DNA of 57,847 nt, filler included, from Stramenopiles sp. TOSAG23-6 (taxonomy: Eukaryota), in assembly GCA_900128565.1 (NCBI GenBank). It is 3 parts of 3 records of this genome, joined end to end, with 100 filler letters (N's around TTAATTAATTAA, not from the genome) between each part and the next. Parts side by side here need not be neighbours in the genome. Positions count along the whole stretch, not along the records: positions 19,368 to 38,584 come from LT636053.1; positions 38,685 to 57,847 come from LT636054.1; 1 more part is not named here. The stretch is one strand, 5' to 3'. The position numbers and the translations under genes were made by a program. Positions within the stretch are counted from its first letter, which is position 1. Each line of letters begins with the position of its first letter. Positions 19,233 to 50,551 of the stretch are shown piece by piece. The notes under the pieces were generated by a model. That model had not been told where the DNA came from. It searched no databases and worked only from the letters and a program-made list of their open reading frames with translations.

Positions 19233-19267
19233 GAAGAAGGTATATTAAGGGAGAGAAACTTTCACTT

Positions 19268-26230: not shown

Positions 26231-28501
26231 TCAGCAATTTCTGGTACCTGTAGAAGCAAGTTCAATCGTCTGCAACATTGAACGGCCAATGGACATATAT
26301 TGTGGAAAAATATTTCAAAAAAAAAAAAAGAAAATTTGTTAGGTACAAAATTTCCTATGAAAATATAAATTCGATTTTTTTGTAAAAAAAAAATAAAACA
26401 TACTCTATAACTGGTGGAGTGACCGCATTGCCGATTGCATGGTAGAAACGCCACCACTCATTACCTCCGGCACTTCCATTGGCATCGGCAATGGCTCGTG
26501 ACGTCTTAAAAGAATCAGGAAAGCCTTGAAGACGAGCACATATATTGAAAAAAATATTTAAAAAAAAACCTTAGGTACGGAATTTTCTATATAAAAAAAA
26601 TATTAAAAAAAAAAAACTTAGGTACGGAATTTTCTATATAAAAAAATTGAAATTCATCATGAAAACATACATTCCCTTGGCGTTAAGAATCTCGGATTGT
26701 GTGGCGGGTGTCTTGGGACTATTTGACTACGACCAAGGAGATCCTGGTGATAGGATGAAATGATAGCTTGTGTTTGTCGATCTGGCCACATGTACTGTGA
26801 AAAAATATTTTTTTAAATAATCGTTAGGTACACATTTTCGTACGAAAAAAAACAATTCGATAAAAATCATGATGAAAACGTACACAACTCGCTTTGGCAT
26901 TCTTTGCTTAAAAGAACGAGAGCGTTGTACTTTCCCCCATTGCTTATCAGTGAGCGTGATTGCTTTCAGTAATAACGGTTGATAAGATGTAAGGTCTGCC
27001 TCATTTTCGAGTATGTCTGCGGCTCTTAGTGAACACATTTGGTTGAGTTCATCAGGCCATGAGAATGTATTTTGGAAAAATATTTCAAAAAAAAAAACTT
27101 AAAATTTGTTAGGTACAAAATTTCGTATGAAAACCAAAAAAAAAAAAAATCGAAATTGAAATTGAAAAAAAATAAAACATACATGGAGTTTTAACATCAT
27201 TTCTAAACCCTACAAGATATAGTCTATTTCTACGCTGTGGAGTTTTAGAAGCTGAATTAATTGTATTCCAGTACACATGTATAATGAAAAATATGTTTTT
27301 CTTTTTGATTAAAAAAAATTGTTAGGTGCAAAATTTTCAATGAAAAAAATATTAGGGTTAGGGTTTAATAATGATGAAAATGTACATAATAACCAGCATT
27401 CTTCAGTGATAATACAATTTCCCGCATAGCCCCACCAACTGTCGCCATTGCCACTGAATCAGAAGAATTGCCTTTCACTGGCAAACCAATAGTTGTTGTA
27501 GCATTTTCATGTAAATTAGAGTCCTTATTTTTTTTTGAATTTGAATCTATTTCTTTTGAATTTGTACCAGTTGAACAATGAAGTAACCCTGGGACATTCT
27601 CTAGCAGAAAACATTTCGGCATATGATCATTCAAAATTCGAGTGATTTCAAGAAAAAGTGAACCCTTACCCTTGGTATCTTTGAACCCTGGTTGATCTCC
27701 AAGCGTGCTAAACGGCTGACAGGGAAAACCAGCGACGAGCATGTCATGTTCCGGAATATCCACTGATCTCACTTTAGTAATGTCACCTGCCAGGATTGAT
27801 TTTTTTTTTGAAGATGGATCCGAAAAATTTAAAGAATAAATTGCTTTCGCACGATTATCAATTTCAGAAGCGAATACGCAAGTTCCACCAAGGGATTCCA
27901 AGCCAAGTCGAAAACCACCAAGACCTGCAAAAAGCTCTATGAAACGAAATTGTTTTTTTTTTTGAGTCACTATATTTACTGGAACCGGCGATTTCTCTTT
28001 TTTTCCTTCATTCGAACCCCATACAAGCTCCTGACTGGTAGGAATTCGTAGTTGTGGGCGCCAAGAGGCTCTTCCTTCGTCTAACAGCACACGCAACTCA
28101 GCTGGAAGGCAATCGGCGACCTCCCTTGAAACCTCCCTTGAATGTACAACGTTGTTATTTATGTATGCAGTAAGAGCGCTTGTTCCAGGCTCAATAACAG
28201 GAACAACGCGACTCTCTTTTAGAGAGGAGGTCAAAAGAGGCGCAATTATATCAGGGTTACCAAATCGTCCTTGGAGAGTTTCTACCCACAACACCTTTGT
28301 TCGTCGAGGAGGAGGTTCTCTATAGTTTTCGGGATACCAATTCGCAGCCTTAAGCATTTCCACAACGCGTTGTGTGAGTTTGGTCTCAATCATTAATGCT
28401 CCTGCGTTTGCTCCGCATCGAGAGACACCATTGAATTCAAAGTTCATTCCAGGTTGTGCCGCCAATTTGTTGACACTATTCCGCTTCCGCTTCCGACCCA
28501 T
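26231..28501 (-). CDS. DNA (cytosine-5) methyltransferase, bacterial Dcm-like / DNMT6-like. Exons 28501-27386, 27276-27183, 27064-26884, 26789-26671, 26539-26404, 26294-26231
   Basis: Core C5-MTase motifs recovered after splicing: FIELFAGLGG, GFPCQPFS, LLENVPG, PQRRNRLYLVGFR, RFLTPRECARLQGFP, AIGNAVTPPV. Confidence 0.92.
26295..26403 (-). other. Family intron, GT-AT
   Basis: Removal gives GNAVTPPVI-E-SIG. Confidence 0.85.
26540..26670 (-). other. Family intron, GT-AT, with an internal ~47-bp duplication
   Basis: Removal gives LTPRE-C-ARLQGFP. Confidence 0.9.
26790..26883 (-). other. Family intron, GT-AT
   Basis: Removal gives KRV-V-WPDR; the internal CAG is out of frame. Confidence 0.85.
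27065..27182 (-). other. Family intron, GT-AT
   Basis: Removal gives KTP-F-SWP. Confidence 0.85.
27277..27385 (-). other. Family intron, GT-AT
   Basis: Removal gives NAGYY|VYWNTIN. Confidence 0.9.
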
Positions 28502-28760
28502 TTGAATACTCTGGCTTATTAGTATGTAGTATTATTTTTCGTAGAAGAAAACAAACAGACTTGAGATTCAATTTTTGAGACTGACTTCCAAAGTAATAAA
28601 AACACGAAAAGTCACCGATTTCGATTTGCTTTTCAAAATGCATGGAAATTCTTAATTTAATTTCCCAAATCGGGCGTTTCTTATAAAAAAACAAAACAAA
28701 AAAACAACACATATTTATATCATATATCATATCAAAGTATTTATATAATGTCATCAAAGT

Positions 28761-31700
28761 CTATTTTATCTTTTTCCCAAGAGTTGAAATCACTTCAATT
28801 TCTGATTTTTTAGTTCCCACCAAAGCAATTTCATTATTGATGTCATTAATTTTTTTTTCTAGGTATTTCGATTTTGAACTTTTTTTCTCCATATGAACCG
28901 CTAATAATTCAATAAATAACTTTTGGGTTTTTTTCAATGCTTTATATTGACTCTGAAGTTTTACTATTTGTGCTGAATGATTGGATTTTGTTTCAAGTTT
29001 ATTCATGTTATATTTGAGGTGAGGAGCTGAATGATTTTGTGGGTTTCGATTTACATGATTGTGCCATTCTCTTAAAGGTTTCGTCAAAGCTGAATGATTT
29101 TGTAAAAGCATTGGCAATATATTTTTAGCTTTCCTTTTTAGCGGTGTACTTTTCGATTTTCTGAGACTTTTAGTTGTCCACGCATTTTTTTTCTTTTGAT
29201 TATTTGTTTTTTTCTTTTTATTATTAGATTTGGGTTTTACCTTTTTTATTGTAAAAGTAGATGAGCCATTAAATGGAAATGCTTCCATCAAACGACTCCT
29301 TGCCCGCCTCTTTTTTGTATATTTCAATGCTTTTGGAATATTTCTTCCTGCCTTGTATACTTTCCGTACATGTTTTACTCCTCTTTTTCCTATATCTTTA
29401 GTTATCTTGGCTCGATTAATCGTTTTTTTCAAAAGTTTTTCTGAATGTTGATTGAAAGGTTTCTTCAAAGATGTATCTGCTGGTTGTTTTTCCGTTTCTG
29501 AAAACTTTACAACTTTGCTTGAAGCCAGTGTAGTATGATCGCATATTTTCATATTGGCTACATTGTTCACTGATCCTGATTTTTGTGGGTGAAAGATTCT
29601 TGTATTCTTCATCAATCTTTCCGTATTTCTTTGAATTAAGTATTCGCGTTTGACTTTATTATGATCATTAAACACTTTATAATTTTCTGGTAGTACATCT
29701 AGTATTTCGAATAATCGAATAAATAAGTCACCAAATTGTCGATAAGAAATATTTCTTGATAAATTCAATGAAGCTTCTTCGTCGCGAAAACTATATTTTT
29801 GCTTTCGAAATTCCCTCTGGGATTTCTTCATATCGAATTGTGCATTTTGATGCCTCTTTCGCAATCGTGAAAGTAGAGAAGAAAAATCTTTTCCAGTGCA
29901 TTGGACTACAACTGAAAATCTCTCAGAAATGTGGCATAACTCAATTTTGGTTGGCATTGCCATATTAAATGAAGAAGGTTTTAATCGCGGTAGAATTCTT
30001 TTAAAATCTTCTTCTGAGACTATCCCACCTCTTACTCTGTCATATGGTATAAATAAAGCTCTGATAATACTTTTATACTTTTTGCCGAAAATTCGCTGTC
30101 TCTCTTTCAAAACAAAGGCCAGTTTTATTAATCCAATAAATGCTGGTTTTGTGAGACCATATTTATCCCTCAAGAGTTTGACTCGCCTTTCTTTTCGCAA
30201 TAGTTCTATTTGTTTTGAAAATAATCTTTTATTGTGGTGCTTCTTTTCCTCCCATAAAGATGCTTTTTCATGTAGATATTGTTTTACGACTGATAGATCG
30301 CATGTTGTTTGAATACATGTTAAAAGTGCTCGCCAGTGTACCTCATTACAATTAAAAACATCCCCAAATTTTATTAAACATCGAATCTCCGATCGTGATA
30401 TAAAAAGATTACACTTTTGCATAATATTTTGAAATGCTAGAACAAACTTTATCGGTGATATCACACCAATGTTATTTTCATCGTGAGTTTCAAATTCACT
30501 GAAAAATGTGGCTAGACTTACATCTTGATTGTTTACATTGTTGTATGAATCATCTGTATCCTTTTGAATATTATCTTCTGTTGAGATGCGTAGACTCTGA
30601 AAATAAGTATTTAGTGTATTTACGCCAGAAGAAAGAGACACACCTACTTTTTGGACCCGGGCTTTTGGAATAGTAGACTCCAATTTGTTTAACAAGTTAT
30701 ATAATTCTTTCTCTCTGTTTATCCTAAGTCGTATTTTAAAGCTAGGTACTTTCCGACGATGTTTTCTTTTTAATTCCTTGCCAACTTCCTGTGCTGATCG
30801 AATACCTACAACTTCATCTCCTTCCCATTCGAAATGTTGTTTCCATTCAACATGTCTCCCAGTTTTTTCCAGCCAATGAAATATTACCCTTTGAATAGTT
30901 CTAGCTGTTCTATCCAACTTTCGTTGGCGGCGTCTTCTTGACACTCTCTGTATAAAAATTGCGGCTTTTGTTTTGATCCTTGCCTGTCTCACTGCCTGCC
31001 ATTGCCTTTCTAGCATGACTTTATTTCGTTGTGCACTTACAATTGCACAAGATACTTTTACTCTATACGAACATTGAATGGTTAAAGCAGCATTTTGCCT
31101 TTTACGTTCATCGATAATTCTACGAACCTCGTGTTGAATTTTACACGCCGCGACATAGCGAATCCTTCTGAGTTCTCTCATTTTGTCCACAATTTTTTTA
31201 TTTCTGTACATACGCCATGCTGATTGAATTTTAACGAGCGCACTAGAAATATTTCGTTTTATAAAAGAATTTGGCAAAAGACCTGCCACATTAGGCACAA
31301 TCAGAAATTTCTCAAGCTCAGTATCATTATCTGCTAATGTCAATGTATACTTTGGCATTGCATATCCAACTTTTACCATATTTTTCTTGATATGTTTCGT
31401 AGTATTATAAAGACTTCTTGATTGTTCAGATACATTGCTATGAACTTCGTGTATGTCGTCTTTTTCAAAAACTTCCCTCATCTGTGAGAACCATTTATCA
31501 TCATATCTAAAGGCGCTGCGAAACTCCATTCCATCTATGTTACATAAACATGGAAGCCGATCTATTTTGCTTTTACGTCTACTGCATTTAATCCATGAAT
31601 ATTCCACTAAATGAAGATCATGAAGTCGAGAAAAAAGACATCCGTCCATTTCCACAGATGATTCAGTTTTATTTTCATCCTTATTTAAAAACATTTCACC

Positions 31701-34700
31701 TTTACTCTTTTTTACCACCCAAGTACCAACTCGTGGTGGGGCATAGATTTCCTGATTATGTTTTATACATTGTTTAATTAAATCTCTTAAATACACATTA
31801 TTATTCTCTGTATTTACTAGATAAATAATGCCGTCGGGCCCGATTTCTTCTTGAAATTTTACAAGTTTCCCTTCTATTGATATGTTTATACTTCCTAAAC
31901 AAACTTCGCGTTTTTCGATTCCCCAATTACAAAGATCGCGCCCACCAAAAGTAGCTGTATTTTCATACATATTTGATTCAGCTATTTCCTTTACTATGTT
32001 TTCTTGTGCTGATACTTCTTCTGATTCCACTAGTGTCCCTGGAAATGACGGCAATGAAAGTGATGTAGATGATGATGAATGTATTTTTGAAGAAATAGTT
32101 TTATATCTACATGCATTTTCAAGTTCTATGAGATCAAGATCAGATGGACAAGAAATGTTGCGATAGTTCTCGGCTGCATTTGAATGAAAATACGAAGCGT
32201 TCTCAAAATCACATTGTAAAGCATAATGAAATGCTGCCTCTGTACAATGATAACCAGCAGACGGGTAGTTCCCGATGTCTTTGTGATACTTCGCTGCAGC
32301 AATATGATGTTTGATTATTGGTCTGCGGATAAAAAGTACACGTTTTTTGAAGTCCCCTAACCGAGTAGAAATTGGAGGAGATGGTGGCATTGACCAAATA
32401 GTTTTTTTTTTTAAAGGAGAAACCAATAAGGCATTCGCGTCTTCCACACTTGAATTTTCTAAATCCAATCCATTAATGGATAATAACCTCATACCAATAC
32501 ATACACCCCCTCTAATAAACTGTTTCTTTGAATCATTCCAATCACTCGCGAAACCTGCAATTTGCGACCCGCTGCTTTCATGACTTACCGGTCGAAGAAT
32601 TATCCCCGCAGAACTACCCGAAGCACCATTTAAATTTATCGTAACATCATCTTTTTCTATTTCTAGAAATTTTGTATCTTCGATTTTTTCTCCTTTATCG
32701 AGAAACTCGCATAACTGCTGTACACCATTTTTCAAAGTTATATTTCTTCTTTCAATTATTTTAATTTTGTGTGTCACATCCTTCAAATTATTTGTATGTA
32801 AGATGTAGTTTGCTTTTGCCTTTTGAAATAATGCGTCGGCGGCGACTGCAGACCTACGTTGCTCTGGAGTTGCGGTTATTCCATCCGCAATATCTGCCTT
32901 TTTCAAAGCTCGTATTTCTTTTCTGTCTAACTCCTTCTTTAGAGGTTTAATCATACTTTGCAATTTCCTCATGCTTTTTCTATTCATTTCGTACAACTCC
33001 ATTGAATTCTCCAAAGCCTCTACAGCTAATCGATTCTCTGATGTGTTTCTTTCGCGCCTTGATCTAAGCTGTTTTACAAAATTTGATAATTTGTCTATTT
33101 GATGGTATTTATTACCGTAAAATTGGGTTGATAGTAATATTTGTGATATTTTATAGTCATTTGTCCTAAATGCTACATGTAGAGCATTGTTCCCAAGTCT
33201 ATTTTGTATGTCAAGTTTTGCCCCGGTATCCAAAAGTATCATTGCTGCTTGAAATCTATGTTTCGCAATTGCGCGTAATAAACAAGAAGACCCTCGAATG
33301 TCTATTGAATTAGGATCTTCACCGCGCTGCAATAATTTTAGTATCTGAAAATAGTTACCTTGATCAATTGCTTTATGTAATGGATTTCGGGGTTTAATTT
33401 CAATGCCTATAATTTTAGCATATTCTACAAAATCTCTTGCAATATGCCCACGCACTTGCGCCTGTATCATAACAACATACCTTTTTGTCTGTTCTAATCT
33501 AATTTTAAATTCACGTCGACATATCCATCCTCTGAAAGATTTCTGTACAACAATTGATGCGTGTTTTAACTTTTGAAATTTAGTACGATGAATAAATCTT
33601 CTTATTTGAGCTTGTAGTATACACATTGCTGCACGTTTACATGCCATCATAGCAATCACATGGGAGCGACGAAAACATGCCTGGACTTTAGTGATTAGCG
33701 CTAAACGTCGCCGTATCATCTTACGAACCTTTGATTGAGTACTGATAACAAATGTCTCAAGAATACGAAGGTAAAGACGTAATATTACTCCTCTAATAAT
33801 AGCTTGAAATTGAATAATTCCTCGTAAAAATGATAAATAAAGTAATCTTGCGCGCCTACGTCGATAACAACTTTGAACCAATGTTGCCGCAGATATTTTC
33901 TTCTTTAATAATGTACGCGATTTTTGTTTCTTGCTGATGCGTTTTATCATAACAACAGTTGCACTTTTGCCTTCAATTTCTTGTCTTGCTCTCATTCTTC
34001 TTTCACGAGCTTTTCTTCGTGCAATGTGTTTTCGATATTCAATTTGAATTTTGCGTGCTGAAGCATGTTGAGTTTTCAAACGACGTTTCTTTGCAATGCG
34101 TTTTACCATCACTACAGTAGCACTTTTACCTTCTATTTGTTTCCGCGCCTTTTTTCGTCGTACCCATTTTCGATAAACTCTCTGAATTATTCTTACTGCA
34201 TTATGTTGACACTTTAGTTGCATACGGAGAGAATATCCTCTCCAATTACACTGCAATGTAATTGCCGCTCTTGTACGAAGTAACTGTAATGCTTCTTCTC
34301 TCATTTGCTTTACTTTTTTTCTTGCCACATTTCCTCGATAGTATGCTTGTACTATAATTATTTTGCAAATCTTCTTAGCACGTAAACGTTTTGCGATGTG
34401 TCTTCGAATATGTACCTGGATCAAAGATGCAGCCACAAGTAACCCTTTCAAGCGCCACTGTTTTTGAATACGAGCTGCTGCATTTGCTTCCTCTTTTCTT
34501 CTCTTTTTTCTAGCTTCACATGCTTTTTTTTCTGCTATCCGGGCATCTTTTTGCGTCCTTTCTACAGCAGCATCAGCTTCTTTATCCCTTTTTCTTTGTG
34601 TATGCGATCGTTGACATTTTTTTAATCTTAGAGCAGCATAATTTTCATTGCGGCGTTGTTTACGTACATGTATACCTCGACGACGGGCTTGACATGTTGT

Positions 34701-36029
34701 TGCTGCAAGTCTATAGGATTCGAACTTTTGTCTTGACATTTCACTTTTAAATAAAGAATTTACTTCTCTTGCGATTGCATCAAAATCTAAATCTATTTCA
34801 CCTGCAGCCATTCGTTTCATTTCACAATCAGTCCGCAACTTTGTTTTGAGTAGAGTTTCCTTTTCTTTTTTTTCCTGTTGTTTTAGCAGCCATTTTTTTG
34901 CTTTTTTATCATTTAATAATTTCTTTTGACTTTCTACACGTGCCAACTCGTTTTGTTTGATCATATCTAAACAATATTTTCTTTCTCTGGCTTTGTTAGC
35001 TTCATACAAACGCTTTTGCATTCGCTTCTTCCACATATTTTCTTCCTTCTCTTTATTTTGGCGAGCAATTAACTTTTCTTTTTCTTTGGCCTTTGCTTCC
35101 TCCTCTTTTTTGAAATATTCATTCTGTGAAGCAATTTTCATTTGTTTTTGCATAGAATTATAAATTTCTTTTGCGCGTTTCTTTTCTCGTCTTATAGACA
35201 TACGATAAAACTCTTTCTTTTTATCTTTTTCTTCTTTCTTCTTATGCTTAAATTGTTGTGCAGTTTCTTTAATTTCTGCGAGCATTTTTTTACGTTGCAA
35301 AGCTTGTACTTGAAGCTGTCTTTCATCTTCTTTTTCCCATTTCATGAATTCAATAGTCTCCTCCTCTAATTTGATCTTGGCTAGGGCATTTTTTTTTTCT
35401 CGCCACTCAATAACAGATGGTGGAACAACATATTGTTTTGTTAGATCTAGACCGGGCAGAGGAAAATGGCGTTTTGACTTTCGTTTTGACTTTCGTTTTG
35501 ATTTTGTTTTGGATTTTGGATTTTTTTTCATTTTTATTGCATCATTTGCTTCATCCTTTGTTTTAACAAAACGATGTTGCTCTGTAATACCACCATCGGA
35601 ATTTACCTGTTCTAGTAAGGAAACACCATCGGCGAATTCGATGAAGCGACTGCCATCTGGATAAATACACTCAAACTGTGCCGGAGATAAAGTGATAACA
35701 GTACCATCTGAAAATTTTTCAATTGAGCCATCCTTAGTTTCAATAACCCTTCTAGATGATTCTCTTTGATTTGCTTTATAAGATAGTTCAAATGCAGAGG
35801 AAACAATGTCTGGAAGGAATCTTTTCCTAGAATCACGCGTTTTGCTTCCAAACCCCCTACTACTTCCGCTTCTGCTTTTACTTCTACTTCTACTTCTACT
35901 TCTGCTTCTACTTCTGCTTCTGCTTCTGCTTCTGCTTCTACTTCTGCTTCTACTTTCGCTCCTGCTTCTACTTCTGCTCCCGCTTCTGCTTCTACTTTCG
36001 CTGCTGCTTCTGCTTCGAGAACGAGGCAT
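28761..36029 (-). CDS. 2422-aa intronless protein: N-terminal RS-dipeptide tract, coiled coil, many IQ motifs, ankyrin repeats, PDZ-like and degenerate EF-hand-like segments
   Basis: Single ORF with (RS)n, repeated IQxxxRGxxxR (VQAYYRGNVAR, IQAQVRGHIAR, IQSAWRMYRNK) and ankyrin motifs NPLHKAI and GNNALHVA. Confidence 0.85.
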   Translation of the reverse strand: MPRSRSRSSSESRSRSGSRSRSRSESRSRSRSRSRSRSRSRSRSRSRSRSKSRSGSSRGFGSKTRDSRKRFLPDIVSSAFELSYKANQRESSRRVIETKDGSIEKFSDGTVITLSPAQFECIYPDGSRFIEFADGVSLLEQVNSDGGITEQHRFVKTKDEANDAIKMKKNPKSKTKSKRKSKRKSKRHFPLPGLDLTKQYVVPPSVIEWREKKNALAKIKLEEETIEFMKWEKEDERQLQVQALQRKKMLAEIKETAQQFKHKKKEEKDKKKEFYRMSIRREKKRAKEIYNSMQKQMKIASQNEYFKKEEEAKAKEKEKLIARQNKEKEENMWKKRMQKRLYEANKARERKYCLDMIKQNELARVESQKKLLNDKKAKKWLLKQQEKKEKETLLKTKLRTDCEMKRMAAGEIDLDFDAIAREVNSLFKSEMSRQKFESYRLAATTCQARRRGIHVRKQRRNENYAALRLKKCQRSHTQRKRDKEADAAVERTQKDARIAEKKACEARKKRRKEEANAAARIQKQWRLKGLLVAASLIQVHIRRHIAKRLRAKKICKIIIVQAYYRGNVARKKVKQMREEALQLLRTRAAITLQCNWRGYSLRMQLKCQHNAVRIIQRVYRKWVRRKKARKQIEGKSATVVMVKRIAKKRRLKTQHASARKIQIEYRKHIARRKARERRMRARQEIEGKSATVVMIKRISKKQKSRTLLKKKISAATLVQSCYRRRRARLLYLSFLRGIIQFQAIIRGVILRLYLRILETFVISTQSKVRKMIRRRLALITKVQACFRRSHVIAMMACKRAAMCILQAQIRRFIHRTKFQKLKHASIVVQKSFRGWICRREFKIRLEQTKRYVVMIQAQVRGHIARDFVEYAKIIGIEIKPRNPLHKAIDQGNYFQILKLLQRGEDPNSIDIRGSSCLLRAIAKHRFQAAMILLDTGAKLDIQNRLGNNALHVAFRTNDYKISQILLSTQFYGNKYHQIDKLSNFVKQLRSRRERNTSENRLAVEALENSMELYEMNRKSMRKLQSMIKPLKKELDRKEIRALKKADIADGITATPEQRRSAVAADALFQKAKANYILHTNNLKDVTHKIKIIERRNITLKNGVQQLCEFLDKGEKIEDTKFLEIEKDDVTINLNGASGSSAGIILRPVSHESSGSQIAGFASDWNDSKKQFIRGGVCIGMRLLSINGLDLENSSVEDANALLVSPLKKKTIWSMPPSPPISTRLGDFKKRVLFIRRPIIKHHIAAAKYHKDIGNYPSAGYHCTEAAFHYALQCDFENASYFHSNAAENYRNISCPSDLDLIELENACRYKTISSKIHSSSSTSLSLPSFPGTLVESEEVSAQENIVKEIAESNMYENTATFGGRDLCNWGIEKREVCLGSINISIEGKLVKFQEEIGPDGIIYLVNTENNNVYLRDLIKQCIKHNQEIYAPPRVGTWVVKKSKGEMFLNKDENKTESSVEMDGCLFSRLHDLHLVEYSWIKCSRRKSKIDRLPCLCNIDGMEFRSAFRYDDKWFSQMREVFEKDDIHEVHSNVSEQSRSLYNTTKHIKKNMVKVGYAMPKYTLTLADNDTELEKFLIVPNVAGLLPNSFIKRNISSALVKIQSAWRMYRNKKIVDKMRELRRIRYVAACKIQHEVRRIIDERKRQNAALTIQCSYRVKVSCAIVSAQRNKVMLERQWQAVRQARIKTKAAIFIQRVSRRRRQRKLDRTARTIQRVIFHWLEKTGRHVEWKQHFEWEGDEVVGIRSAQEVGKELKRKHRRKVPSFKIRLRINREKELYNLLNKLESTIPKARVQKVGVSLSSGVNTLNTYFQSLRISTEDNIQKDTDDSYNNVNNQDVSLATFFSEFETHDENNIGVISPIKFVLAFQNIMQKCNLFISRSEIRCLIKFGDVFNCNEVHWRALLTCIQTTCDLSVVKQYLHEKASLWEEKKHHNKRLFSKQIELLRKERRVKLLRDKYGLTKPAFIGLIKLAFVLKERQRIFGKKYKSIIRALFIPYDRVRGGIVSEEDFKRILPRLKPSSFNMAMPTKIELCHISERFSVVVQCTGKDFSSLLSRLRKRHQNAQFDMKKSQREFRKQKYSFRDEEASLNLSRNISYRQFGDLFIRLFEILDVLPENYKVFNDHNKVKREYLIQRNTERLMKNTRIFHPQKSGSVNNVANMKICDHTTLASSKVVKFSETEKQPADTSLKKPFNQHSEKLLKKTINRAKITKDIGKRGVKHVRKVYKAGRNIPKALKYTKKRRARSRLMEAFPFNGSSTFTIKKVKPKSNNKKKKTNNQKKKNAWTTKSLRKSKSTPLKRKAKNILPMLLQNHSALTKPLREWHNHVNRNPQNHSAPHLKYNMNKLETKSNHSAQIVKLQSQYKALKKTQKLFIELLAVHMEKKSSKSKYLEKKINDINNEIALVGTKKSEIEVISTLGKKIK

Positions 36030-36243
36030 AAGGAAGTATCTTTTAATCTATGTTTGACATTACTTAAAACTGCTTGGAATAGTATTAGGCACAAACAAAA
36101 GAAAGTTCCTCCGTACAGGAATTTGAAACTGTCACAGAGAAATCCGTTTTTTTCTGAATTTTTCTTGAAAAAATATGCGCAAACGCTGCGCAAACCTGCC
36201 CAATTTAAGAATTTATTTTTTATTATATATTGAATATTTATCA

Positions 36244-39700: not shown

Positions 39701-39701
39701 T

Positions 39702-40022: not shown

Positions 40023-40142
40023 TTCTGCAAGAAAAACTCATTTATTTTAAACATACCGTTGAACTCAATTTGTGTAAAATGTAATATTAAAATCGCATAT
40101 AAGCTATTCCCACAAGGAACTCTTCATTTATATATTCGACAA

Positions 40143-41669: not shown

Positions 41670-42047
41670 GGTAAGACTTTTACAAATAAAGAAACTTGCA
41701 ATTCAAATAACGAAGTATCTAATGCTTAAAATATTTTATCTGGGAGAAGCTGGTATATATATACAAAAGGATATAGCAGACACACGCGATGATTCTAGCT
41801 TTACTACAAGTAGCCTAGGAAGGTAACACTCTCTCGATCGTGTGAAAAATCTTTTTTATTACGTTTTGTTGACGTGTCATGACAGAAAAGACTGACTTCT
41901 TGCAATTAATTGGGACACATGTGTACAACACACTACATCGGCTAGCTACTACGTATAGGTTCTACTAGTCCTATTTCAATTAGTTTTGTACCTAAAACTT
42001 CTTAAGGGTCTGTGTGTGAGTTCATGATGCATTTTCAGAGTAGAGGA

Positions 42048-44843
42048 ATGTTTGTACGTCGTATATTTTGCTCGAATAGAACTTTTTCTAACCGCGTTGG
42101 TCGTGGACGACAACCGTTTGGACGAGGTAATTATGGTAGAGTTGGGAAAAAGTCGTTGAATAAACGTGAAAATTATCAAAGAGATTCAAGTAAACGTAAC
42201 CTAGTACGCTCCCTGGACTTTGCTGAACAGTGGAAGATAAAACTAAAAGAAAAAGAGACTAAAGCACACAAAAAGATTTTGAGTCAAGTATCAGCTGCAG
42301 CAAAGCCAACAACAAAACGAGGGAATCGACTAGAAAAATCCAATTCTTCCATAGATTCGATGACAGCGCATAGAAAACTACGGGCTGGGGGTAAACGTGA
42401 TGTGAGAGATATCAAGAACGAATCAACAGCCAACACAGTTAATCCGTCTAGCATAGAAAAGGAAAAGATAAATCGGAGACTCGAGGAAGCACGAGCAACA
42501 GTTCGAATTCCCCGTCGCCCTCCACCAAAGCGGACGTTGCGTTTCAACGACAAATTTGCTGGTGCTGATGGTAGACAAGCTGCATTTAGCCAACGTCATG
42601 AAAAGCATAAAGCTTTTGGCAATGCCAGACGAGCAAAAGAAGTTGTCAAGAAAAAGAAAAAAGACCGAGATTATCAACGAGCACAAGTTCAAACTTTTGA
42701 CGATTGGCTCTCTGTGAGTAAGTCTGGTAAGAAGGGTCGCAAAGTTCAATATTTTGATGGTATCCCTTTAAGAGACTTGGCAGCAGCAATGCGAGTGCAA
42801 ATCCGTCATTTACAAAATGCTTTCTTTGAACTGGGTGAAATAAAGTTAAGTAAAGCTAAAAGTACCCATGATAATATACCTGCAGATATTGCTGAACTTG
42901 TCATTGCAGAATTTGGTATGACTCCAATTGTTTCTTCTGCACCTCAAGATGTATTTAATGAAGATTTTTTAGATTTGACTCCTACTCCTCGTGGAGGTTG
43001 TTCAACGCTTTCAGAAGAAGAACGTTCTGAGCTCCCAGACCGTCCTCCTGTTGTTGCTGTAATGGGACATGTTAACCATGGAAAAACAAGTTTATTGGAT
43101 TCTCTTAGGAAGCGCCATCATATTCACAATTCTGTTGTAAAAGATGAAAATGAAAGTTTTGATATTGCAGCAGACATTTGTACTGTTGAAGCGGGTAATA
43201 TCACACAAGCAATGTCAGCGTTTGCTGTAGAATTAGGTGGTCGAAAACGTGGAGCATTCATTGATACTCCTGGACATGCTGCATTTTCAAAAATGAGGGA
43301 GCGTGGTGTTATGATTACTGACATTGCTCTAGTTGTAGTGGATGCTGTACAGGGGCTACAAAGACAGACAAATGAAACAATTCAACTTTTAGCACAACAA
43401 ATTCCTCCAACTCCTGTTGTCCTTGCTCTAAATAAGTGTGACTTACTAGAGCCACATGAATTAGAAGAAGCTCGTAAAAAGGTTTCTTCTCAAATAATGA
43501 ATCTAGGATTTATGACTGAAGAAGATGGAGGGGATGTTCAGATGGTAGAGGTTTCTGCCAAAGAGAATACTGGTCTCGAGTCTTTAGAGGAAGCCATTTT
43601 ATTATCCGCTGAAATCATGGAACTTCGGGCAGCTCGTGAAGGTCGTGGAGAAGCTGTTGTACTTGAAGCAAAAGTCACTCCTGGTATTGGTCCTTCAATT
43701 ACTGCTATGGTGACCTGCGGTACAATTAATGAGGGTGACTATTTTGTCTGTGGCACAAAGTGGGGTCGTGTGCGTCAACTCAATTGTTGTAAAGGTATGT
43801 CTTTAGAACAAGCGTATGCTTCTACACCAATTCAAATTGTGGGTATAAATGACACTGTAGCTGCTGGTGATGAGTTGATTTGTGCAGATGATGAAGAGCA
43901 TGCAAAGTCAATAGCAAATGCTCGTCTGCAACGCGATATGACAGAATCGGATGAAATTGAAAGAAAAAAAATAGAAGATTTGCGAAGAGATCATCATTTG
44001 GCCAAGGTAGAATTAGATCAATTAATACTTTCCAAGTCGAAAGAATTGGGAAGGAAACTTAGACCAAGTGAACGCACAGAATTGACTGATAAGTTCAAAC
44101 TAGATACTGATGCAAGATTAGATGCAGCAAGTAGTATTGGCAATGATAAAGATTCGAATATTTCCCCTCTAGATCCGAATATTTCTAGTGTTTCTCTTAT
44201 TCTGAAAGCGGACACAGATGGAGCATTAGAAACTTTAAAGGCTGAAATAATGTCAATACCTCAACACAAACTTAATGTTCGTATAGTACAATCAGGTGTT
44301 GGCACAGTTACAAAAAATGATTTATTTAAAGCAGATACATATGGAGCCGCAATTTTTGGTTTTAATACAAAGACACCCAAAGTTATACGTGATACAGCTG
44401 ATGAGGAACAAATCAATATATATGAAGATCCAATTATTTACTCTGTTGTTGATCAAGTTAAGGAGTTTATGATTGACTCACTGCCTCCAATTATAGAGGA
44501 AAAAATGCTTGGACAGGCTAGAATTTTACAGACTTTTGATATTACTAAGCGTGGTAGAAGAACATTTGAGGTTGCAGGTGTTAAAGTTGTTTCTGGTGAA
44601 ATTAAACGCAGCAATAAAATGCGTTTATTGCGCGGAAAAAATGTAATTTTTGAAGCACCATATTTATCTAGTCTACAGCATTTTAAAGAAAAAGTTAATG
44701 TGATAAAACAAGGATCAGAATGCGCATTATCGCTACATGGTTGGGAAGAGAGAACAGTTGATGAGAAAGAGCCTATTGAATTTAAGGAGGGAGATATACT
44801 CCAAAGTTTTGAAAATGTTGCAACAAAGCAAACATTAGTGTAG
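42048..44843 (+). CDS. MTIF2: Mitochondrial translation initiation factor IF-2; intronless (start may be 42024, 42027 or 42048)
   Basis: RPPVVAVMGHVNHGKTSLLD, EAGNITQ, FIDTPGHAAFSKMRERG, LNKCD, VSAK, LKADTDG, SLQHFKEKV..GSEC. Confidence 0.93.
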   Translation: MFVRRIFCSNRTFSNRVGRGRQPFGRGNYGRVGKKSLNKRENYQRDSSKRNLVRSLDFAEQWKIKLKEKETKAHKKILSQVSAAAKPTTKRGNRLEKSNSSIDSMTAHRKLRAGGKRDVRDIKNESTANTVNPSSIEKEKINRRLEEARATVRIPRRPPPKRTLRFNDKFAGADGRQAAFSQRHEKHKAFGNARRAKEVVKKKKKDRDYQRAQVQTFDDWLSVSKSGKKGRKVQYFDGIPLRDLAAAMRVQIRHLQNAFFELGEIKLSKAKSTHDNIPADIAELVIAEFGMTPIVSSAPQDVFNEDFLDLTPTPRGGCSTLSEEERSELPDRPPVVAVMGHVNHGKTSLLDSLRKRHHIHNSVVKDENESFDIAADICTVEAGNITQAMSAFAVELGGRKRGAFIDTPGHAAFSKMRERGVMITDIALVVVDAVQGLQRQTNETIQLLAQQIPPTPVVLALNKCDLLEPHELEEARKKVSSQIMNLGFMTEEDGGDVQMVEVSAKENTGLESLEEAILLSAEIMELRAAREGRGEAVVLEAKVTPGIGPSITAMVTCGTINEGDYFVCGTKWGRVRQLNCCKGMSLEQAYASTPIQIVGINDTVAAGDELICADDEEHAKSIANARLQRDMTESDEIERKKIEDLRRDHHLAKVELDQLILSKSKELGRKLRPSERTELTDKFKLDTDARLDAASSIGNDKDSNISPLDPNISSVSLILKADTDGALETLKAEIMSIPQHKLNVRIVQSGVGTVTKNDLFKADTYGAAIFGFNTKTPKVIRDTADEEQINIYEDPIIYSVVDQVKEFMIDSLPPIIEEKMLGQARILQTFDITKRGRRTFEVAGVKVVSGEIKRSNKMRLLRGKNVIFEAPYLSSLQHFKEKVNVIKQGSECALSLHGWEERTVDEKEPIEFKEGDILQSFENVATKQTLV

Positions 44844-44886
44844 TGTTTATTATATGCTTTTACATTTTAATATAAAGGAATTATTA

Positions 44887-46825
44887 CTATATTGGTTCAC
44901 ATAATGTACAGTCGCATTCAAAGTGATACGGTCGTAAACATTCTCTACGTTCTTCAGTACTACATTGAGTTCCATCGATATAAGACACGCAAAGTTCATC
45001 ACCACATTTTATATCTTTTATTGCATGAAGAGAAACCTTCGCGAACGATTTCTCTAAGTCAAGTCTATCTTCTGCCTCATCAAGTCCAGCAGCAACATTG
45101 GGTTGACAACTATGATTTAGGGTAGCATACCTTGAACAAAGTCCAGAAGCAGTTGCTGATGGAAAGCATGGAATACCTTTATTTACTTTCATGAGATTTT
45201 TCTCAAAGTCTTCTAAAGCTACTTTCATATTTTTAGCTGTGCAGTCCATCTTTGCTCTATTTAGAAAAGCCCATAGCGGAGAAGGTACATCAACTTGAAC
45301 TACATTGGTTTGAACACAACCAATAATATAGTCCAAGAAGTGAGGTGTCAATAAAGACGCAGCTGCGACTGCAGCATCGTCATCAAAAGAGTGCATAAAT
45401 AAAATCTGCATTGCTTGTAGAGGTTCTCTAAAGACTTCGTCCCACGTTGAGTTTACTTTAAATTTATCTTTTCGCTCATTTTCAGACATACCAAAGAGAA
45501 TCATACAAGTATCCACAGCTGATACAGTTGAGAACTGACCTATTATTTCATCCACTGCATTTTCCATTGGAACTTTGCCTGTTGTATGCCTCCCTATTAT
45601 ACGACATATTAACCGAAGAATAAGACCAAGATGAAGAACGTCGTACTGACCAAGCCCGCGAAAATTACGTAAAGCTGTAATAGCAGCAGGATCTTTGTGT
45701 GTACAAAGAATGCGATGATATTCGTCCGATGCATTCTTTCGACATTTTTCTGAACAATATACAGTTTCACAATTCTTACAAGATACTGGCTTTGGAAGAA
45801 AATCTGTACCACACCCTTGCAATACTGTTTCACGTATAATCGTTTTGTATTTAGGGGATTTTAATTGTATATTACTAACTTTCGCTGCATGACGAACAAC
45901 TTGCCAAATAGGCCCTATGTATTGTGAAAAAATATTTCAAAAAAAAATTGTTAGGTACGAAATTTCGTATGAAAAAAAAAAGTTAAATTAAAAATTCATA
46001 TAAAACGTACATAAAACGAAGACAATGATCGCATGTCATTGACTCAGGAATTATTTCTATTGATGCACATCCATCATCACCTAAGAGTTTTCGGTGAAAT
46101 GCAATAGGCTTTTCGTAACTTCCAACTGCGGCAGTACGAGCCAAATTTTCTGTAGCAATTACACCTACTCCGTGTCCTTTAATTATTTGAGGTTTATATG
46201 GGACAGAAATATTTAAAGAATTAAATATATCTGCAATTTTCAAGACACGATTATTCATACTATTTTGTGTTTGTACAACAGATAATGCGTCAGATTTATT
46301 TAGCACTGAAGATGCTACAGATACATTTGACGTAACCCTTTTCAAGATTTTCTGGAAAACTTCAGTAGGATCTTCACTACATGATTTATTTGGAGAAATA
46401 GAACATTGTTTATCTGTCAAAGTCTTTGACTTTTTTTTCTTCTTCTTCTTTTTACGTTTTCTTGTTTTCTTCACATCTACATTATTTTCCAAACTCTTTT
46501 GTCCGAGTAATTCTGAAGGAACTTCAGAAGACGTGACATCCACTGATGGCAATAAGCACTCTTTCATTTGAGGTTTAGAATTTACAGAGGGTAAACCACT
46601 TTCTATGACTTTACTGCACTCAGATGGTTGTGTATTTGAAGAAGAAGGATTTACTTTTGGATCAATATCAGACTCTTCTTGTGATTTTCGAAGTAATCCC
46701 TCAATGCGGTGGAGTTTCAGTGTGCGTTTTATATCATCAGTCAACCGACTAATTAAACTAGAAAGCTCATACTCATCCAAAGAAACTTCGGCATCCTTAA
46801 GCAACTGATAAATACAAGTACTCAT
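44887..46825 (-). CDS. SMYD-like SET/MYND lysine methyltransferase. Exons 46825-46011, 45916-44887
   Basis: GHGVGVIATENL, CDHCLRF-IG, CKNCETVYCSEKC, LNHSCQPN, IKCGDELCVSYI, YHFECDCTLC. Confidence 0.9.
45917..46010 (-). other. Family intron, GT-AT
   Basis: Removal gives CDHCLRF-I-GP; the adjacent AG is out of frame. Confidence 0.9.
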
Positions 46826-47130
46826 CCTATACTAATAAAATATACCACTAATCTGTTCTTATAAATGATAATACCAATATTGGGTACATCTGGTACCAGT
46901 ATGAATGCTTAATTACTACTCTAGCTTTCGTGGTAGTGTTTTACTGGGTAGTAGGTTGATCAGTTTCTTTTCACTGACTATACCTACCTACCGCCTACTG
47001 GCTAGGCTAGGGTTAGGGTTTCAGGAGCGAAAATTGCAATTGAAATCAATGTGTTCTAAAAAAGTCATAATTCAACTGCAAAAGAAGGAAGGGTTATTAT
47101 AATGATATTTAGTTAAATAACTCATCCAAA

Positions 47131-50100
47131 ATGAGCCAAAGTTGTCTCATCATTGGTGGTGGTGTAGCGGGTGCTTGTCTCAGTCGAACACTGGCTGCAC
47201 GTGGTGTCGCGGTAACACTCATTGAAAAATCAGAGCTACTTTGCTCCGGTGCAACTTGGCATGCTGCTGGTTTGGTCACTCGGTTTGGCGGTAGTCCCAA
47301 GCTGAAAAAGATTCATGTCCGATCACTTCAAATTCTAAACGAATTGCACGACGAAAGTGAGAATGGCATTAGTCTTCATACACCTGGTTCTATACGAATA
47401 ATTGAAAAGGGTAACCCCGATCGCCTCAAAGAGGCCCATCAACATGTTGCAATGGCTGCTTTGTATGACGATCCGGAATTTCCATGTGAAATCATTTCTG
47501 CGGATGAGTGTGGAGAAAGACATCCTCTATTAGACTGTAGCAATGTAGAATGTGGTGTTTGGACTCCAAATGATGGTGATATTGATCCCACGTCACTAGT
47601 TAATGCTGTGTCCGGGAAAGCAAAAGCAGATGGTGCAAAATATATACTTAATACAGAAGTTGTGTCTATTGAACACCGTCAAGGAGGTGGATTTTGTGTC
47701 AAATCTGCATGTGGACAAGTATTTGAAGGTGATATGCTTGTCAACGCAGCTGGTCTTTGGTCTAAACAGATAACAGAAATGGTTGGTGATGGTATGGTAC
47801 ACCCAGGTTTCATTATTGAGCACCAATATGTAAGTTTCCATGTGCTTTTTTTTTTCGTGGTTTTTGTGATAAATTTTATTTTTCTTTTACAAAGAAAATT
47901 CCATACCTCACAATAATTGTTTTTGTGTGATGTATTTTTTACCCAATATGCAATCACAGAAGAAATTCCAGAAATTGCAGCACTACTCGCTAAAGGTAAA
48001 AGAGTGTACGTTTCTAATTTAATTTTTTTTTTGTACAAAATTTTGTACAAAATTTTGTACCTAACAATTGTTTTTACTAAAAAAATACTTTTTCACAATA
48101 CGTCCCTGTTTTACGCGATCTCAAAGGTTCAAGTTATATTCGACAAGAAAGATCAGGTATATTAGTCGGGCCTTATGAGGAACGGACTGTATTACGGAAT
48201 AAACCTGATGATCGAGGTACCTGGAAGAATGGACCTCCTAGCGATTGGGGGCATGAGCTATTTCCTGATGCACTTGATCGTATTGAGGGTAACTTACTTT
48301 CTGCGATGGAACTTTGTCCAAGTCTTGCTGAAGTTGGATTTATCAATTGTACAAATGGACCTACAATTTGGACTGGAGATTCACTTGCTCGTGTAGGTCG
48401 AACACATAGTACGTTTTCATTATAAATTTCATTTTTTGTGTATAGAAAATTTTGTACCTAACGACTTTTTTTTGAATATTTTTCACAAGACATTTCCAGG
48501 ATATTTCGATTTCAATACACTTACATATGGTATCGCTCAATCTCCAGCACTTTCTGAGTATTTAACTTCAATTATGCTTGATGGCGAACAACCGTTTGAT
48601 GCTGCAGCAAATTTCGATCCAGTGCGGTATGGCTCTTGGGCAACAGCAGGAACAGTTATTGGTGATGCATATACAGAAGACGTTGTACTTGACACATATG
48701 GAAAAAATAATTGTATTGCTTATCCCTTTGAGAATCGAAAAGCTGGACGTTCTCATCTTGTAGAAATACAAAGCCCACTATACCCCAAACTTCTAGAACA
48801 GGGTGCTCGTTGTACATTTAGCTTATCTGGTGTTGAAGTACCTGCATGGTTTGAAGGTATTTCATCTGCTTCTTCTATTAGTGAAATTCCTATAAAACCA
48901 GTTGAAAATGAATTAACGTTTGATCATCATGAGTGGGCACCACACGCAGCTGCTGAGTCTCAACATGTCCTACATTCAGTGGGTATCCAATATGCATCGT
49001 TTTCTAAAATAAAAGTATCTGGGCCTCATGCTCGTGATTTTCTAATGCGTGCTACAACAAATATTATACCCAAAAAAATGGGACCATGTAGGCTGACATA
49101 TGCTTTGACACCTAAAGGAAAAGTTTTAGCAGAGTTTTCAGTCACAAAGACTGATGTATGTTTTCATCATTGATGTAAGATTTTTTGTTTTTTTTCATAA
49201 GAAATGTTGTACCTAACAAATTTTAAACTTTAAAAATATTTTTTCAGAGTATATGAAGATGAGTATTATTTGGTTGGTTCTCGAGATTACGCAGAGCATG
49301 ATACATTGTGTACATTTTCATCATGAATTTCAAAATTATTATTCAAATTTATTATTTTTTTACCTATGTGGATTTCAATTTTTGTAACATACCTAACAAA
49401 ACAATCAAATTTTTGAAATATTTTTTTACAATTTACGGTTTCGTTCAATTCTTCATCATGGTTCAAATCACTCTGATTCAAAAGAAGATAATTGGAAATT
49501 GTCTTTAGGCCTTTCTAATTGTTTAGATGTAAAAGTAGAAAATATTTCAGATGATGTAGATATGTATGTTTTATTTTTTTCAATTTCGAATTGTTTTTTC
49601 CGTACGAAATTTCGTACCTAACAAATTCTACAAAAAAAAATATTTTTTCACAATATATTTTACATTTGGCTGGCCCAAAAAGTCGAGAATTACTTGGAGC
49701 TATATCCCCTGCAGTGCTTGATATTCCATTTATGAATATGAAGTCACTTGAAATTGCAGGTCAGTTAGTAAACGTATTTCGTGTTTCTTTTTCTGGTCTA
49801 GTTGGGTTTGAAATTCATTGTCCTCGTAATTCTAGTAGTGTGACTGCCGTGTATGATGCATTACAAGAACATCCGTTGGCAACAAAAGAAAAATTAAATC
49901 TTCGACCTTTTGGAGGATATGCTTTAAATGCACTTCGTGTTGAAGTAGGATTTCGTGTAAAAGCTGATTTGGATTATATGCACTACAAAGAAGCTGGTAT
50001 TGAACCATTTACTTCAATGAAAAAATCTATGGGATTTATTGGTAAAAATACAAAATCATTGGAAGATATCACAAAAAAACCTGCAATGTTTCAGGTCAAT

Positions 50101-50551
50101 ACTGAGAGTGGTTATGAATGGAGTATTCCTAGCGATTGTCCAATGTATGTTTCATTCTTCATTTTTACCCATTTTTTTTTTTCATAGAAAATTTCATACC
50201 TAACATTTTTTTTATCCCAAAAAAAAAACAATTTTTCACAATACATTCGGGATCCATCAAATAATGATGTAGTAGGCTACACAACAGGATCTGCCTTTGG
50301 TGCTCGAACAAATAAAACGATTGCCATGGGTTACCTACATGTACATTTTCATCATTTACTTTTACCTATTTTTTTACTATGAAAATTTTATACCTAACAA
50401 AAAAAATTAAATGTTTTGAAATATTTTTGTAAAAGTACATTCTGATGTATCAAAGAACAAATTATATGTAGAATCGTATGGTAAGAAATGGAATGTTACG
50501 GTGCTCTCTGAACCACCTTCAACCGTTACTGGACGAGATGGTGATTTTTAA
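47131..50551 (+). CDS. DMGDH: Dimethylglycine dehydrogenase-like FAD oxidoreductase with a GcvT domain; 9 exons
   Basis: IIGGGVAG, SGATWHAAG, DGDIDP, EHQY-AITE, PVLRDL..SSYIRQE, HLAGPKSRELL, RVSFSGLVGFEIH, ALNALRVE, VGYTTGSAFG. Confidence 0.9.
47830..47949 (+). other. Family intron, GT-AT (GTAAGT donor)
   Basis: Removal gives EHQY|AITE; CCAATAT precedes both junctions. Confidence 0.85.
48006..48103 (+). other. Family intron, GT-GT (or 48004-48101 GT-AC)
   Basis: Either register gives KR-V-PVLRD. Confidence 0.8.
48409..48493 (+). other. Family intron, GT-AT
   Basis: Removal gives GRTH-I-PGYF. Confidence 0.85.
49156..49254 (+). other. Family intron, GT-AT
   Basis: Removal gives TKTD|EDEYYLVGS; two upstream AGs are out of frame. 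Confidence 0.9.
49310..49436 (+). other. Family intron, GT-AC
   Basis: Removal gives HDTL-W-FRS (conserved HDxxW). Confidence 0.8.
49564..49658 (+). other. Family intron, GT-AT
   Basis: Removal gives DVD-I-LHLAGPKSR. Confidence 0.9.
50145..50246 (+). other. Family intron, GT-AT
   Basis: Removal gives DCP-I-RDP..VVGYTT. Confidence 0.85.
50341..50440 (+). other. Family intron, GT-AT
   Basis: Removal gives AMGYLH|SDVSK. Confidence 0.85.

Follow-up and report, generated by a model that had tools for sequence, protein, structure and literature searches.

Introner elements, known from Micromonas, Aureococcus and other eukaryotes, have been reviewed (PMC11282704) and surveyed (PMC12130899), and the families described in the passages of these papers on which we draw have canonical ends. 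Here we describe a family of repeats of about 100 nucleotides (nt) in 57,847 nt of DNA, filler included, from Stramenopiles sp. TOSAG23-6 (NCBI GenBank assembly GCA_900128565.1), which behaves like an introner, in that many similar copies in sense orientation form introns with repeats at their borders, and whose introns mostly begin with an ordinary GT and end in AT. The whole of this analysed stretch, three parts of three records joined end to end, is called the window below. Like introners, the family consists of short, near-identical, high-copy introns in unrelated genes, placed in sense orientation, which bring splice signals of their own and whose border repeats are consistent with transposon insertion; unlike the described introners, it shows an AT end in 27 of 29 complete copies. 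According to passages of its text, the 2025 survey (PMC12130899) accepted AG and AC as 3' ends and dropped families with unfamiliar sites unless they were supported by RNA, and introner surveys that start from annotated introns would miss the present family.

Other departures from the GT-AG rule offer further points of comparison, again as given in passages of the papers concerned. The Amoebophrya introners (PMC7789003) are also repeated non-GT-AG introns with short direct repeats across their junctions, on which standard gene predictors fail, but they have no preferred dinucleotides and carry inverted repeats of 8-20 nt forming hairpins, whereas here the ends are uniformly GT...AT and RNAalifold predicts no fold. 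In Fritillaria borealis, too, a whole lineage has left GT-AG, which has been explained by a divergent U2AF that changes how the major spliceosome recognises the 3' site (bioRxiv 10.1101/2025.08.15.670264); there 95% of introns are off the rule at both ends, whereas the present family retains the 5' GT and departs from the rule in its last base only. U12-type GT-AT and AT-AT introns (PMC1557818; Physarum preprint) have the same terminal pairs and a tolerant last base, but they are rare single introns, whereas a repeat family is concerned here, with no RTATCC motif and a branch-like motif 31-53 nt from the end. The mammalian U2-type GT-AT intron of DGCR2 (PMC1557818) resembles the family in combining a good U2-type 5' site and a pyrimidine tract with an AT end, but mammalian GT-AT introns are single conserved oddities, whereas AT rules the whole family here. 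Passages of PMC5778133, PMC8163842 and PMC12614181, supplements aside, make no mention of non-canonical introns in marine stramenopiles. A uniform AT end with an ordinary GT start in an introner-like family appears to be new, as no earlier report was found in the passages of the literature searched, supplements aside. Few signals of eukaryotic gene expression are as conserved as the terminal AG, and introns that combine an AT end with an ordinary 5' site and branch motif would, as a whole family in a free-living marine protist, be a natural experiment on 3' splice site choice at exon ligation and show how far this step can drift. The family is a further case of an unusual splice rule that owes its spread to a mobile element and not to slow mutation. 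Predictors bound to GT-AG corrupt the gene models of such an organism, and proteomes and functional surveys inherit the errors.

Thirty-three sense copies of the repeat lie in seven genes of the window, which encode a TBC-domain protein, an EF-hand/DUSP protein, a protein kinase, a cytosine-5 DNA methyltransferase, a SET-domain protein, a dimethylglycine-dehydrogenase-like protein and a papain-like protease. The copies share the form GTAYGTTTT ... GTACCTAAC ... TTTTTYCACAATACAT, and the layout read from the printed flanks is GTAYGTTTT(CATCATGA) ... TTTTTTTCRTACGAAATTTYGTACCTAAC ... AAATATTTTTYCACAATACAT. With one mismatch allowed, GTACCTAAC occurs 31 times, as against 6.7 ± 2.5 times in shuffled sequence, and an nhmmer profile built from 23 copies gave 35 hits that correspond to the 33 introns, all on the coding strand of the host gene. 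Twenty-nine copies are complete, and position-by-position counts were made on 27 introns.

The aligned ends of the 29 complete copies are GT-AT in 24, AT-AT in three, GT-GT in one and GT-AC in one, so that 26 start with GT and three with AT. AG stands at the aligned end of none, and an equivalent reading that ends in AG exists for a single copy (50341-50440, as TA-AG). Because short repeats run across the intron borders, most junctions have 2-9 equivalent readings, with an ambiguity of 1-7 nt. At the 5' site, G is found at +1 in 26 of the 27 introns, T at +2 in 27, A at +3 in 25, G or A at +5 in 26 and T at +6 in 27; at the 3' end, the counts are T at -1 in 26, A at -2 in 26, C or T at -3 in 27, A at -4 in 25 and T at -5 in 24. 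Recurrence of T at -1 in that many copies indicates that it is no base-calling error. CCTAAC or a one-letter variant precedes the 3' end by 31-53 nt, T-runs lying in between, and this arrangement of 5' site and distant CTAAC is shared with the single ordinary intron of the window (GTAAGT...CTAAC...39 nt...CAG). The flanking exons are also biased: A is found at exon -2 in 20/27, T at -1 in 23/27 and AT together in 18/27, and G follows at exon +1 in 17/27, which with the upstream AT gives AT|G on both sides. These flanks may be a target site of the element or a preference of splice context. The intron, too, ends in AT, and GTAT...ATAC forms a 4-nt inverted repeat, as seen in occupied sites. Moving both cuts 2 nt upstream would give most copies an AT-AC reading, but not those that follow an exon with an end other than AT; at 48409-48493 this reading yields TQFP in place of the conserved T.IP.

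Reading frames place the cuts at the ends of the repeat. Fourteen introns are flanked on both sides by long, unique open frames, and in 13 of them the frame is continuous when the intron is removed from repeat start to repeat end, where one in three would be expected by chance (binomial P ~6e-6); the remaining one (22067-21973) is in frame jointly with the next intron across a 32-nt exon. An AG lies between the CCTAAC motif and the predicted end in 8 of the 27 introns, and in six of these eight it lies at least 10 nt past the branch-like motif, at 4, 5, 5-7, 5, 17 and 24 nt before the end. As long as the GT donor is kept, all nearby AGs are out of frame, the intronic ones as well as the exonic one at 45917. 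A preliminary description of this DNA had cited five introns (26883-26790, 49156-49254, 48409-48493, 50341-50440 and 46010-45917) for acceptors other than AG and for passing over AGs that scanning for the first AG would favour. All five cited sequences are present at these positions (5/5), and the proposal is upheld by the frames, the AG survey and the end readings.

The dimethylglycine-dehydrogenase-like gene carries the fullest evidence. Cutting its eight introns at the repeat ends gives a single open reading frame of 864 amino acids, and six of the eight junctions fall within gap-free conserved columns of an alignment with four homologs (~50% identity), their exact contexts being EHQY|AIT, RV|PVLRDL, GRTHI|PGY, HDTLW, DVDI|LHLAGP and DCPI|RD. 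Intron 1 (47830-47949, +) is an old, diverged copy read as GT-AT, with a direct border repeat of up to 7 nt and nine equivalent readings, none of which ends in AG; it is placed by the open reading frame, the gap-free EHQY|AIT, an nhmmer hit and RNA. Intron 2 (48006-48103, +) ends in ACGT and can be read as GT-GT, TG-CG or GT-AC, never with AG, and its junction lies in the conserved RV|PVLRDL. For intron 3 (48409-48493, +) GT-AT is the sole reading, the AG of CACAAG-ACAT precedes the end by 4 nt, and both the frame and GRTHI|PGY, which fits R[IV]PGY in 4/4 homologs, support the cut. Intron 4 (49156-49254, +) is GT-AT and ends TTCAGAG-TATAT, with CAGAG 5-7 nt before the end and a junction that is gap-free against 3/4 homologs. 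Intron 5 (49310-49436, +) is GT-AC and ends in TTTAC, its split codon T|GG giving the conserved W; intron 6 (49564-49658, +) is GT-AT, ends in TATAT and joins DVDI|LHLAGP; intron 7 (50145-50246, +) is GT-AT and joins DCPI|RD; and intron 8 (50341-50440, +) is GT-AT, readable also as TA-AG, with AAAAG 5 nt before the end (AAAAG-TACAT). A protein search for near-identical fragments of 121-385 amino acids across introns 3 and 4 gave no hits at E <= 1e-60.

RNA agrees with these cuts. Over 38700-50700, the window was compared with contigs from seawater, namely three metatranscriptomes and one DNA metagenome, with 69 further joints beyond those displayed. RNA contigs of runs X7 and X8 join exons across three introns (47830-47949, 48006-48103 and 50341-50440), and other matches of RNA contigs have an edge at the end predicted for 49310-49436, 49564-49658 or 50145-50246, so that RNA support reaches 6 of the 29 complete introns. 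Record 27 of X8 matches 47951-48003 and then 48102-48258, skipping 98 nt that correspond to intron 2 in its -2 reading, a junction at which no AG reading is possible at all. Record 21 of X7 matches 47696-47822, continues with 61 unplaced letters and resumes at 48102-48251; since these letters are accounted for by 7 ambiguous ones and 54 of exon 2, introns 1 and 2 are both removed in it. Record 29 of X8, whose match begins at 50245, as predicted for intron 7 in its -2 reading, matches 50245-50335 and then 50436-50588, skipping the 100 nt of intron 8. Record 22 of X7 matches only 49437-49559, flanked by 115 and 65 further letters, and thus starts at the end of intron 5, while record 28 of X8 begins at 49655, which together with the stop at 49559 gives the predicted ends of intron 6 at their -4 equivalent positions. 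If introns 1 and 8 were spliced at their GT-AG alternatives, the matches of these contigs would extend to 47833 and end at 50329, respectively; they end at 47822 and 50335, which excludes the alternatives for these contigs. At 50341-50440, one of the introns cited earlier, the junction is equally readable as TA-AG, and the RNA contigs rule out a GT donor with an AG acceptor there.

In the DNA metagenome, records 5, 7 and 8 of run X3 run from exon into intron and, at the depth of single-copy sequence, keep the introns, so that the elements are present in the DNA and absent from the RNA. This bears on the idea that they are removed from DNA, like the eliminated sequences of ciliates, or that the RNA stems from intron-less gene copies. 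The elements are indeed short, AT-rich and flanked by repeats, with boundaries that are ambiguous by 1-7 nt, but no displayed DNA joint removes one, their ends are not TA...TA, and all genes can be read with the standard genetic code, so that we give this idea almost no credence.

As to what sets the 3' end, position, structure or a motif (WWTAYAT) had been proposed in place of AG scanning. The motif part fared well, with T at -1 and A at -2 each almost invariant, and a motif would best fit the choice of the 3' end in the aligned copies. The part that invoked a fixed position did not, as a ruler from the branch-like motif is unlikely when its distance to the end varies between 31 and 53 nt; and structure found no support, since RNAalifold predicted 0 consensus pairs in 22 copies. 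Introns 48006-48103 (ending ACGT) and 49310-49436 (ending TTAC) end at the same aligned position, as both RNA pieces and conserved residues support, which indicates that the last two intron letters are tolerant. A possible pairing of the first and last bases was also considered: all four variant events keep a pair, and the result is not significant because all four are transitions.

An RNA fold or other non-spliceosomal machinery, comparable to that of the nonconventional introns of Euglena or the Amoebophrya introners, would make GT and CTAAC incidental. It could draw on the complementarity of the terminal AUACAU to AU|GUAU at the 5' junction, given the A and T favoured at exon -2 and -1, on the two introns that keep the cut position despite different last letters, and on the repeated introns of Amoebophrya, which, in passages of PMC7789003, have direct and inverted border repeats and no fixed dinucleotides. 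Besides the missing consensus pairs, however, positions +4 and -6 do not covary, in that 9 of the 11 copies with GTAC keep a mismatching base at -6 (A in eight, T in one), and unlike Amoebophrya the family has uniform ends with a 5' site and branch motif of spliceosomal consensus. We regard this explanation as quite improbable.

On balance, it is probable that an introner-like element makes these introns and that U2-like machinery ends them after TAYAT. In this proposal, a high-copy mobile element of about 100 nt would supply its own signals, namely a yeast-like 5' site GTAYGT, the branch-like GTACCTAAC, T-rich tracts and a 3' terminal TTTTTYCACAATACAT. The pre-mRNA would be cut before the G of GTAYGT and right after the terminal TAYAT, so that the whole element leaves and the frame is restored. 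AG would have no visible role, neither the AGs inside the introns, as far as 24 nt from the end, nor the one in the exon 2 nt past it being used in the productive mRNA. The copies themselves, the orientation they share with their host genes, the joined exons in RNA, the introns kept in DNA and the ends other than AG are all observed directly. The spliceosome would be of U2 type, its exon ligation step accepting U, rarely C, at -1 after a TAYA context, and the AT upstream of most copies is taken as a target-site feature of the element.

Several observations weigh against this proposal. Three copies have A at +1, among them 527-637, where the junction is backed by the unbroken numbering of a TBC profile, and A at +1 normally blocks exon ligation in the U2-type spliceosome. 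CCTAAC is a putative branch site, recognised from the sequence alone. The RNA evidence consists of assembled contigs, not reads, which give no proportions of AT and AG use and from which rare forms drop out; the displayed RNA pieces cover none of 48409-48493, 49156-49254 and 45917-46010, and 26790-26883 lies outside the compared stretch, though missing RNA cover at these four introns is no evidence against splicing there. AG occurs 8 times in the intron tails where 15.5 ± 3.1 are expected from composition (P ~0.014), a count that assigns one branch motif differently from the survey given above and that is no test on independent samples, since the copies descend from one sequence; some avoidance of AG in the tails may exist. 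GT-AT and AT-AT are also termini reported for U12-type introns in passages of PMC1557818. Finally, within the range searched, an in-frame GT/GC...AG alternative exists near 13 of the 27 introns. The earlier claim that the frame is broken by use of AG is right for a fixed GT donor and fails with the donor moved at 26883-26790, where a donor 2 nt upstream gives an in-frame GT(-2)..CACAG with one added residue that is compatible with the homolog alignment, and at 49156-49254, where a donor 4 nt downstream gives an in-frame GT(+4)..CAGAG with three added residues.

These alternatives would be the substance of an explanation by ordinary GT-AG sites a few bases away, the AT ends being a misreading, a sequencing error or an artefact of reverse transcription. 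The automated gene model of the dehydrogenase locus, P0001, is built in this way and uses the alternative at 49156-49254, and short direct border repeats, as at 47830-47949, are a setting for template switching (passages of the Physarum preprint). Against this, 14 of the 27 introns have no such alternative, the T at -1 recurs throughout the family, an independent DNA metagenome matches the window, and the RNA matches quoted above already contradict ordinary sites at 47830-47949, 48006-48103 and 50341-50440. Because it forces GT-AG, P0001 is wrong at the junctions it reaches, where it gains or loses residues within conserved blocks, retains one intron and ends prematurely. Homology to related proteins argues against most of the in-frame alternatives, not against all, 26883-26790 being the notable case. 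We consider ordinary GT-AG splicing very improbable as an explanation of the family, and the artefact and DNA-level explanations remain highly improbable even when taken together.

A minor, U12-type, or minor-derived spliceosome that tolerates non-AG ends and finds the 3' site by context would account for the termini in another way. GT-AT and AT-AN have been reported as non-canonical pairs competent for U12-type splicing, in passages of the sources cited for such introns, and 24 GT-AT and three AT-AT copies make up most of the 29; some non-photosynthetic stramenopiles, as shown by Blastocystis, keep a full U12 system with hundreds of minor introns (passages of PMC5608401 and PMC10639083). The consensus U12-type 5' site is RTATCCTT (passages of the Physarum preprint), but C is found at neither +5 (0/27) nor +6 (0/27), so that the ATCC core is absent. 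GT-GT and GT-AC are missing from those published lists of U12 termini that were examined, in the passages concerned, and T-rich tracts are present, as in U2-type introns. GTATGTTTT matches seven of the nine positions of GTATCCTTT, which we take to be the U12 branch consensus, but the sole branch-like motif, ACCTAAC, stands 31-53 nt from the end as against a distance of roughly 10-15 nt that is usual in U12-type introns, and no closer match to a TTCCTTRAC-like branch site was found in the last 22 nt. Taken together, a U12-type route appears unlikely. Rfam gave no match on the window, and no small nuclear RNA lies within it.

Loss or divergence of splicing factors at contacts with the 3' splice site had been suggested, SLU7 among them, and a SLU7 gene happens to lie in the window. 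Its match at 38699-39565 (-) is strong (Pfam Slu7, 4e-54; human SLU7 residues 271-572, 1.7e-51), and over the readable part the gene is neither missing nor visibly divergent, the motif KYLRNLDPNSA.YDPK.R.MR being intact. The gene (38633-39792, -) has a frame shift near 39560 in a hexamer repeat of the GATTCT type, the first 90 positions of the Pfam profile are without a match upstream, and an N run (38590-38690) breaks its 3' part. Record 1 of DNA run X3 also ends its match at 39561, near the frame shift.

A bolder and more tentative idea, which we think possible but doubtful, is that splicing in nature follows a third rule in addition to GT-AG and AT-AC, represented by this family, with ligation after U (or C) instead of G. 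The spliceosome would recognise the first and last bases by their pairing, Watson-Crick or wobble (G-U in 25 introns, that is the 24 GT-AT and the GT-GT copy; A-U in three; G-C in one), with U-A or U-G at +2/-2, and a mobile element would have seeded about a thousand GT-AT introns genome-wide.

Depth in the seawater data points to a high copy number. Summed over the repeat bins (45918-46318 and others), contig depth is 9363 in DNA run X3, as against ~8 for unique sequence, which is only a rough sign of high copy number because the figure sums all contigs; the corresponding sums in RNA runs X6 and X7 are 1508 and 2465. From these sums, the element is therefore very abundant in seawater populations and in RNA libraries, in the latter as unspliced or excised intron RNA or as DNA carry-over. 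A pattern scan of the metagenome for the branch-region motif gave at least 119 loci, on which the nhmmer profile found two weak partial hits (E 3.5e-4 and 6.6e-4) and no real copies. Within the copies of the window, telomere-like CCCTAA units follow directly on the 5' GTAYRTTTTCATCAT block in 763-877 (+) and 27277-27385 (-), as AACCCTAATAACCCTAA and AAACCCTAACCCTAA, and the branch-region unit is tandemly duplicated in 26540-26670 (-) and 48006-48103 (+), one with two copies of ATATAGAAAATTCCGTACCTAAG and the other with three TGTACAAAATTT-like units. A GTAC-containing unit is repeated up to four times per element.

Among the other host genes, the cytosine-5 DNA methyltransferase gene on the minus strand is the most complete, five introns cut at the repeat ends giving a single open reading frame of 579 amino acids. 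Intron 1 (27277-27385) is GT-AT and leaves unused an AG 24 nt before its end; it is in frame and gap-free in homologs. Intron 2 (27065-27182, GT-AT) is placed by the frame. Intron 3 (26790-26883, GT-AT) ends in TTTTTCACAG-TACAT, with CACAG 5 nt before the end; it is in frame, and its product VVWPD aligns to LAW.D of the homologs. Intron 4 (26540-26670, GT-AT) ends in ATATAT, contains two CCTAAG motifs as a result of the tandem duplication, and joins TPRE|CARLQGFP within a conserved motif without a gap. Intron 5 (26295-26403, GT-AT) joins PPVIE|SIGRSML, gap-free against homologs.

The SET-domain gene has one intron (45917-46010, -; GT-AT), which ends in ACAT, the exon beginning with AG directly after it; 273 open codons upstream and 342 downstream are in frame only at the AT, and the intron is retained in record 5 of DNA run X3. 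In the EF-hand/DUSP gene, the GT-AT intron 23123-23230 (-) joins 487 open codons upstream and 354 downstream in frame. Further GT-AT introns on the minus strand are 21973-22067, which is followed by the 32-nt exon mentioned above, and 21850-21940, the two being in frame jointly; 21614-21716 and 19543-19642, each in frame; and 21201-21294, for which an in-frame option exists and the upstream frame is ambiguous. The diverged copy 20440-20537 (-) reads ACTATCAG / TTTTTACTATCAG at its 3' end, where CAG, TAT and other ends are all in frame, and it may be a family member that has gained an ordinary AG acceptor. The 5' part of a further copy, found by nhmmer, lies at 19368-19422 (-) and is cut off by an N run. 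At the end of the window, the 3' part of a copy in the papain-like protease gene (57793-57847, -) ends in CACAATACAT.

In the protein-kinase gene, the repeat hit 25805-25894 (+) is a GT-AT intron with an in-frame option, the downstream frame being judged from the kinase C-terminal sequence. The last intron of the gene (25969-26078, +) has A at +1 and is AT-AT, ending in TTCAT; its putative junction is placed by the spacing of the kinase C-terminal motif.

The TBC-domain gene (1-4218, +) is less regular, and no boundary combination tried gives one open reading frame. The 3' part of a copy lies at the window edge (1-53; nhmmer). The first full exon (54-306) has two long open frames, of 84 and 51 codons, and a GT-AT cut of the intron that follows (307-406) fits only the shorter of them, whereas the longer would call for a GT-AC reading in which the intron loses 2 nt. 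This exon probably contains a frameshift of the assembly or a further small intron. Intron 527-637 has A at +1 and is AT-AT or AT-AC, and its flanking exons match positions 130-166 and 167-206 of the RabGAP-TBC profile without a gap. Introns 763-877, with its telomere-like units, and 986-1087, placed by frame comparison, are GT-AT. The diverged copy 1122-1213 has A at +1 and is read as AT-AT, with boundaries deduced from the frames alone. Two GT-AT introns follow on the same strand: 1734-1837, which starts with GTAGGT and joins 194 open codons upstream and 665 downstream in frame, and 3780-3869, which starts with GTTTGT, leaves unused an AG 17 nt before its end and joins 680 and 115 open codons in frame.

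The window as a whole is AT-rich, gene-dense eukaryotic DNA, with 30-41% G+C in 2-kb bins and 231 N. The only near-identical protein in a large collection is eukprot:GSMAST32.ASY1.ANO1.2091.1 (96% identity). Several long genes, such as a 4,537-codon open reading frame at 5698-19311 (-) and a 2,428-codon one at 28761-36047, carry no copy of the repeat, so that the element is spread very unevenly among genes. The ordinary intron used above for comparison belongs to the 4,537-codon gene (5635-5735, -; GTAAGT...CTAAC...39 nt...TTACAG) and is in frame at CAG, as read from the DNA sequence. Just before its TACAG stands ATCACAATTCAT, which resembles the 3' end of the repeat plus 5 nt, and the intron may be an old copy whose acceptor shifted to AG. 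At 50874-52082 (-), a 402-codon open reading frame is composed in part of tandem units of ~190 bp. It shows weak, sub-threshold matches to a homeodomain-like helix-turn-helix family (HTH_32, 1.4e-6, under the curated cut-off), and a link to the DNA-binding domain of a transposase would be speculation.

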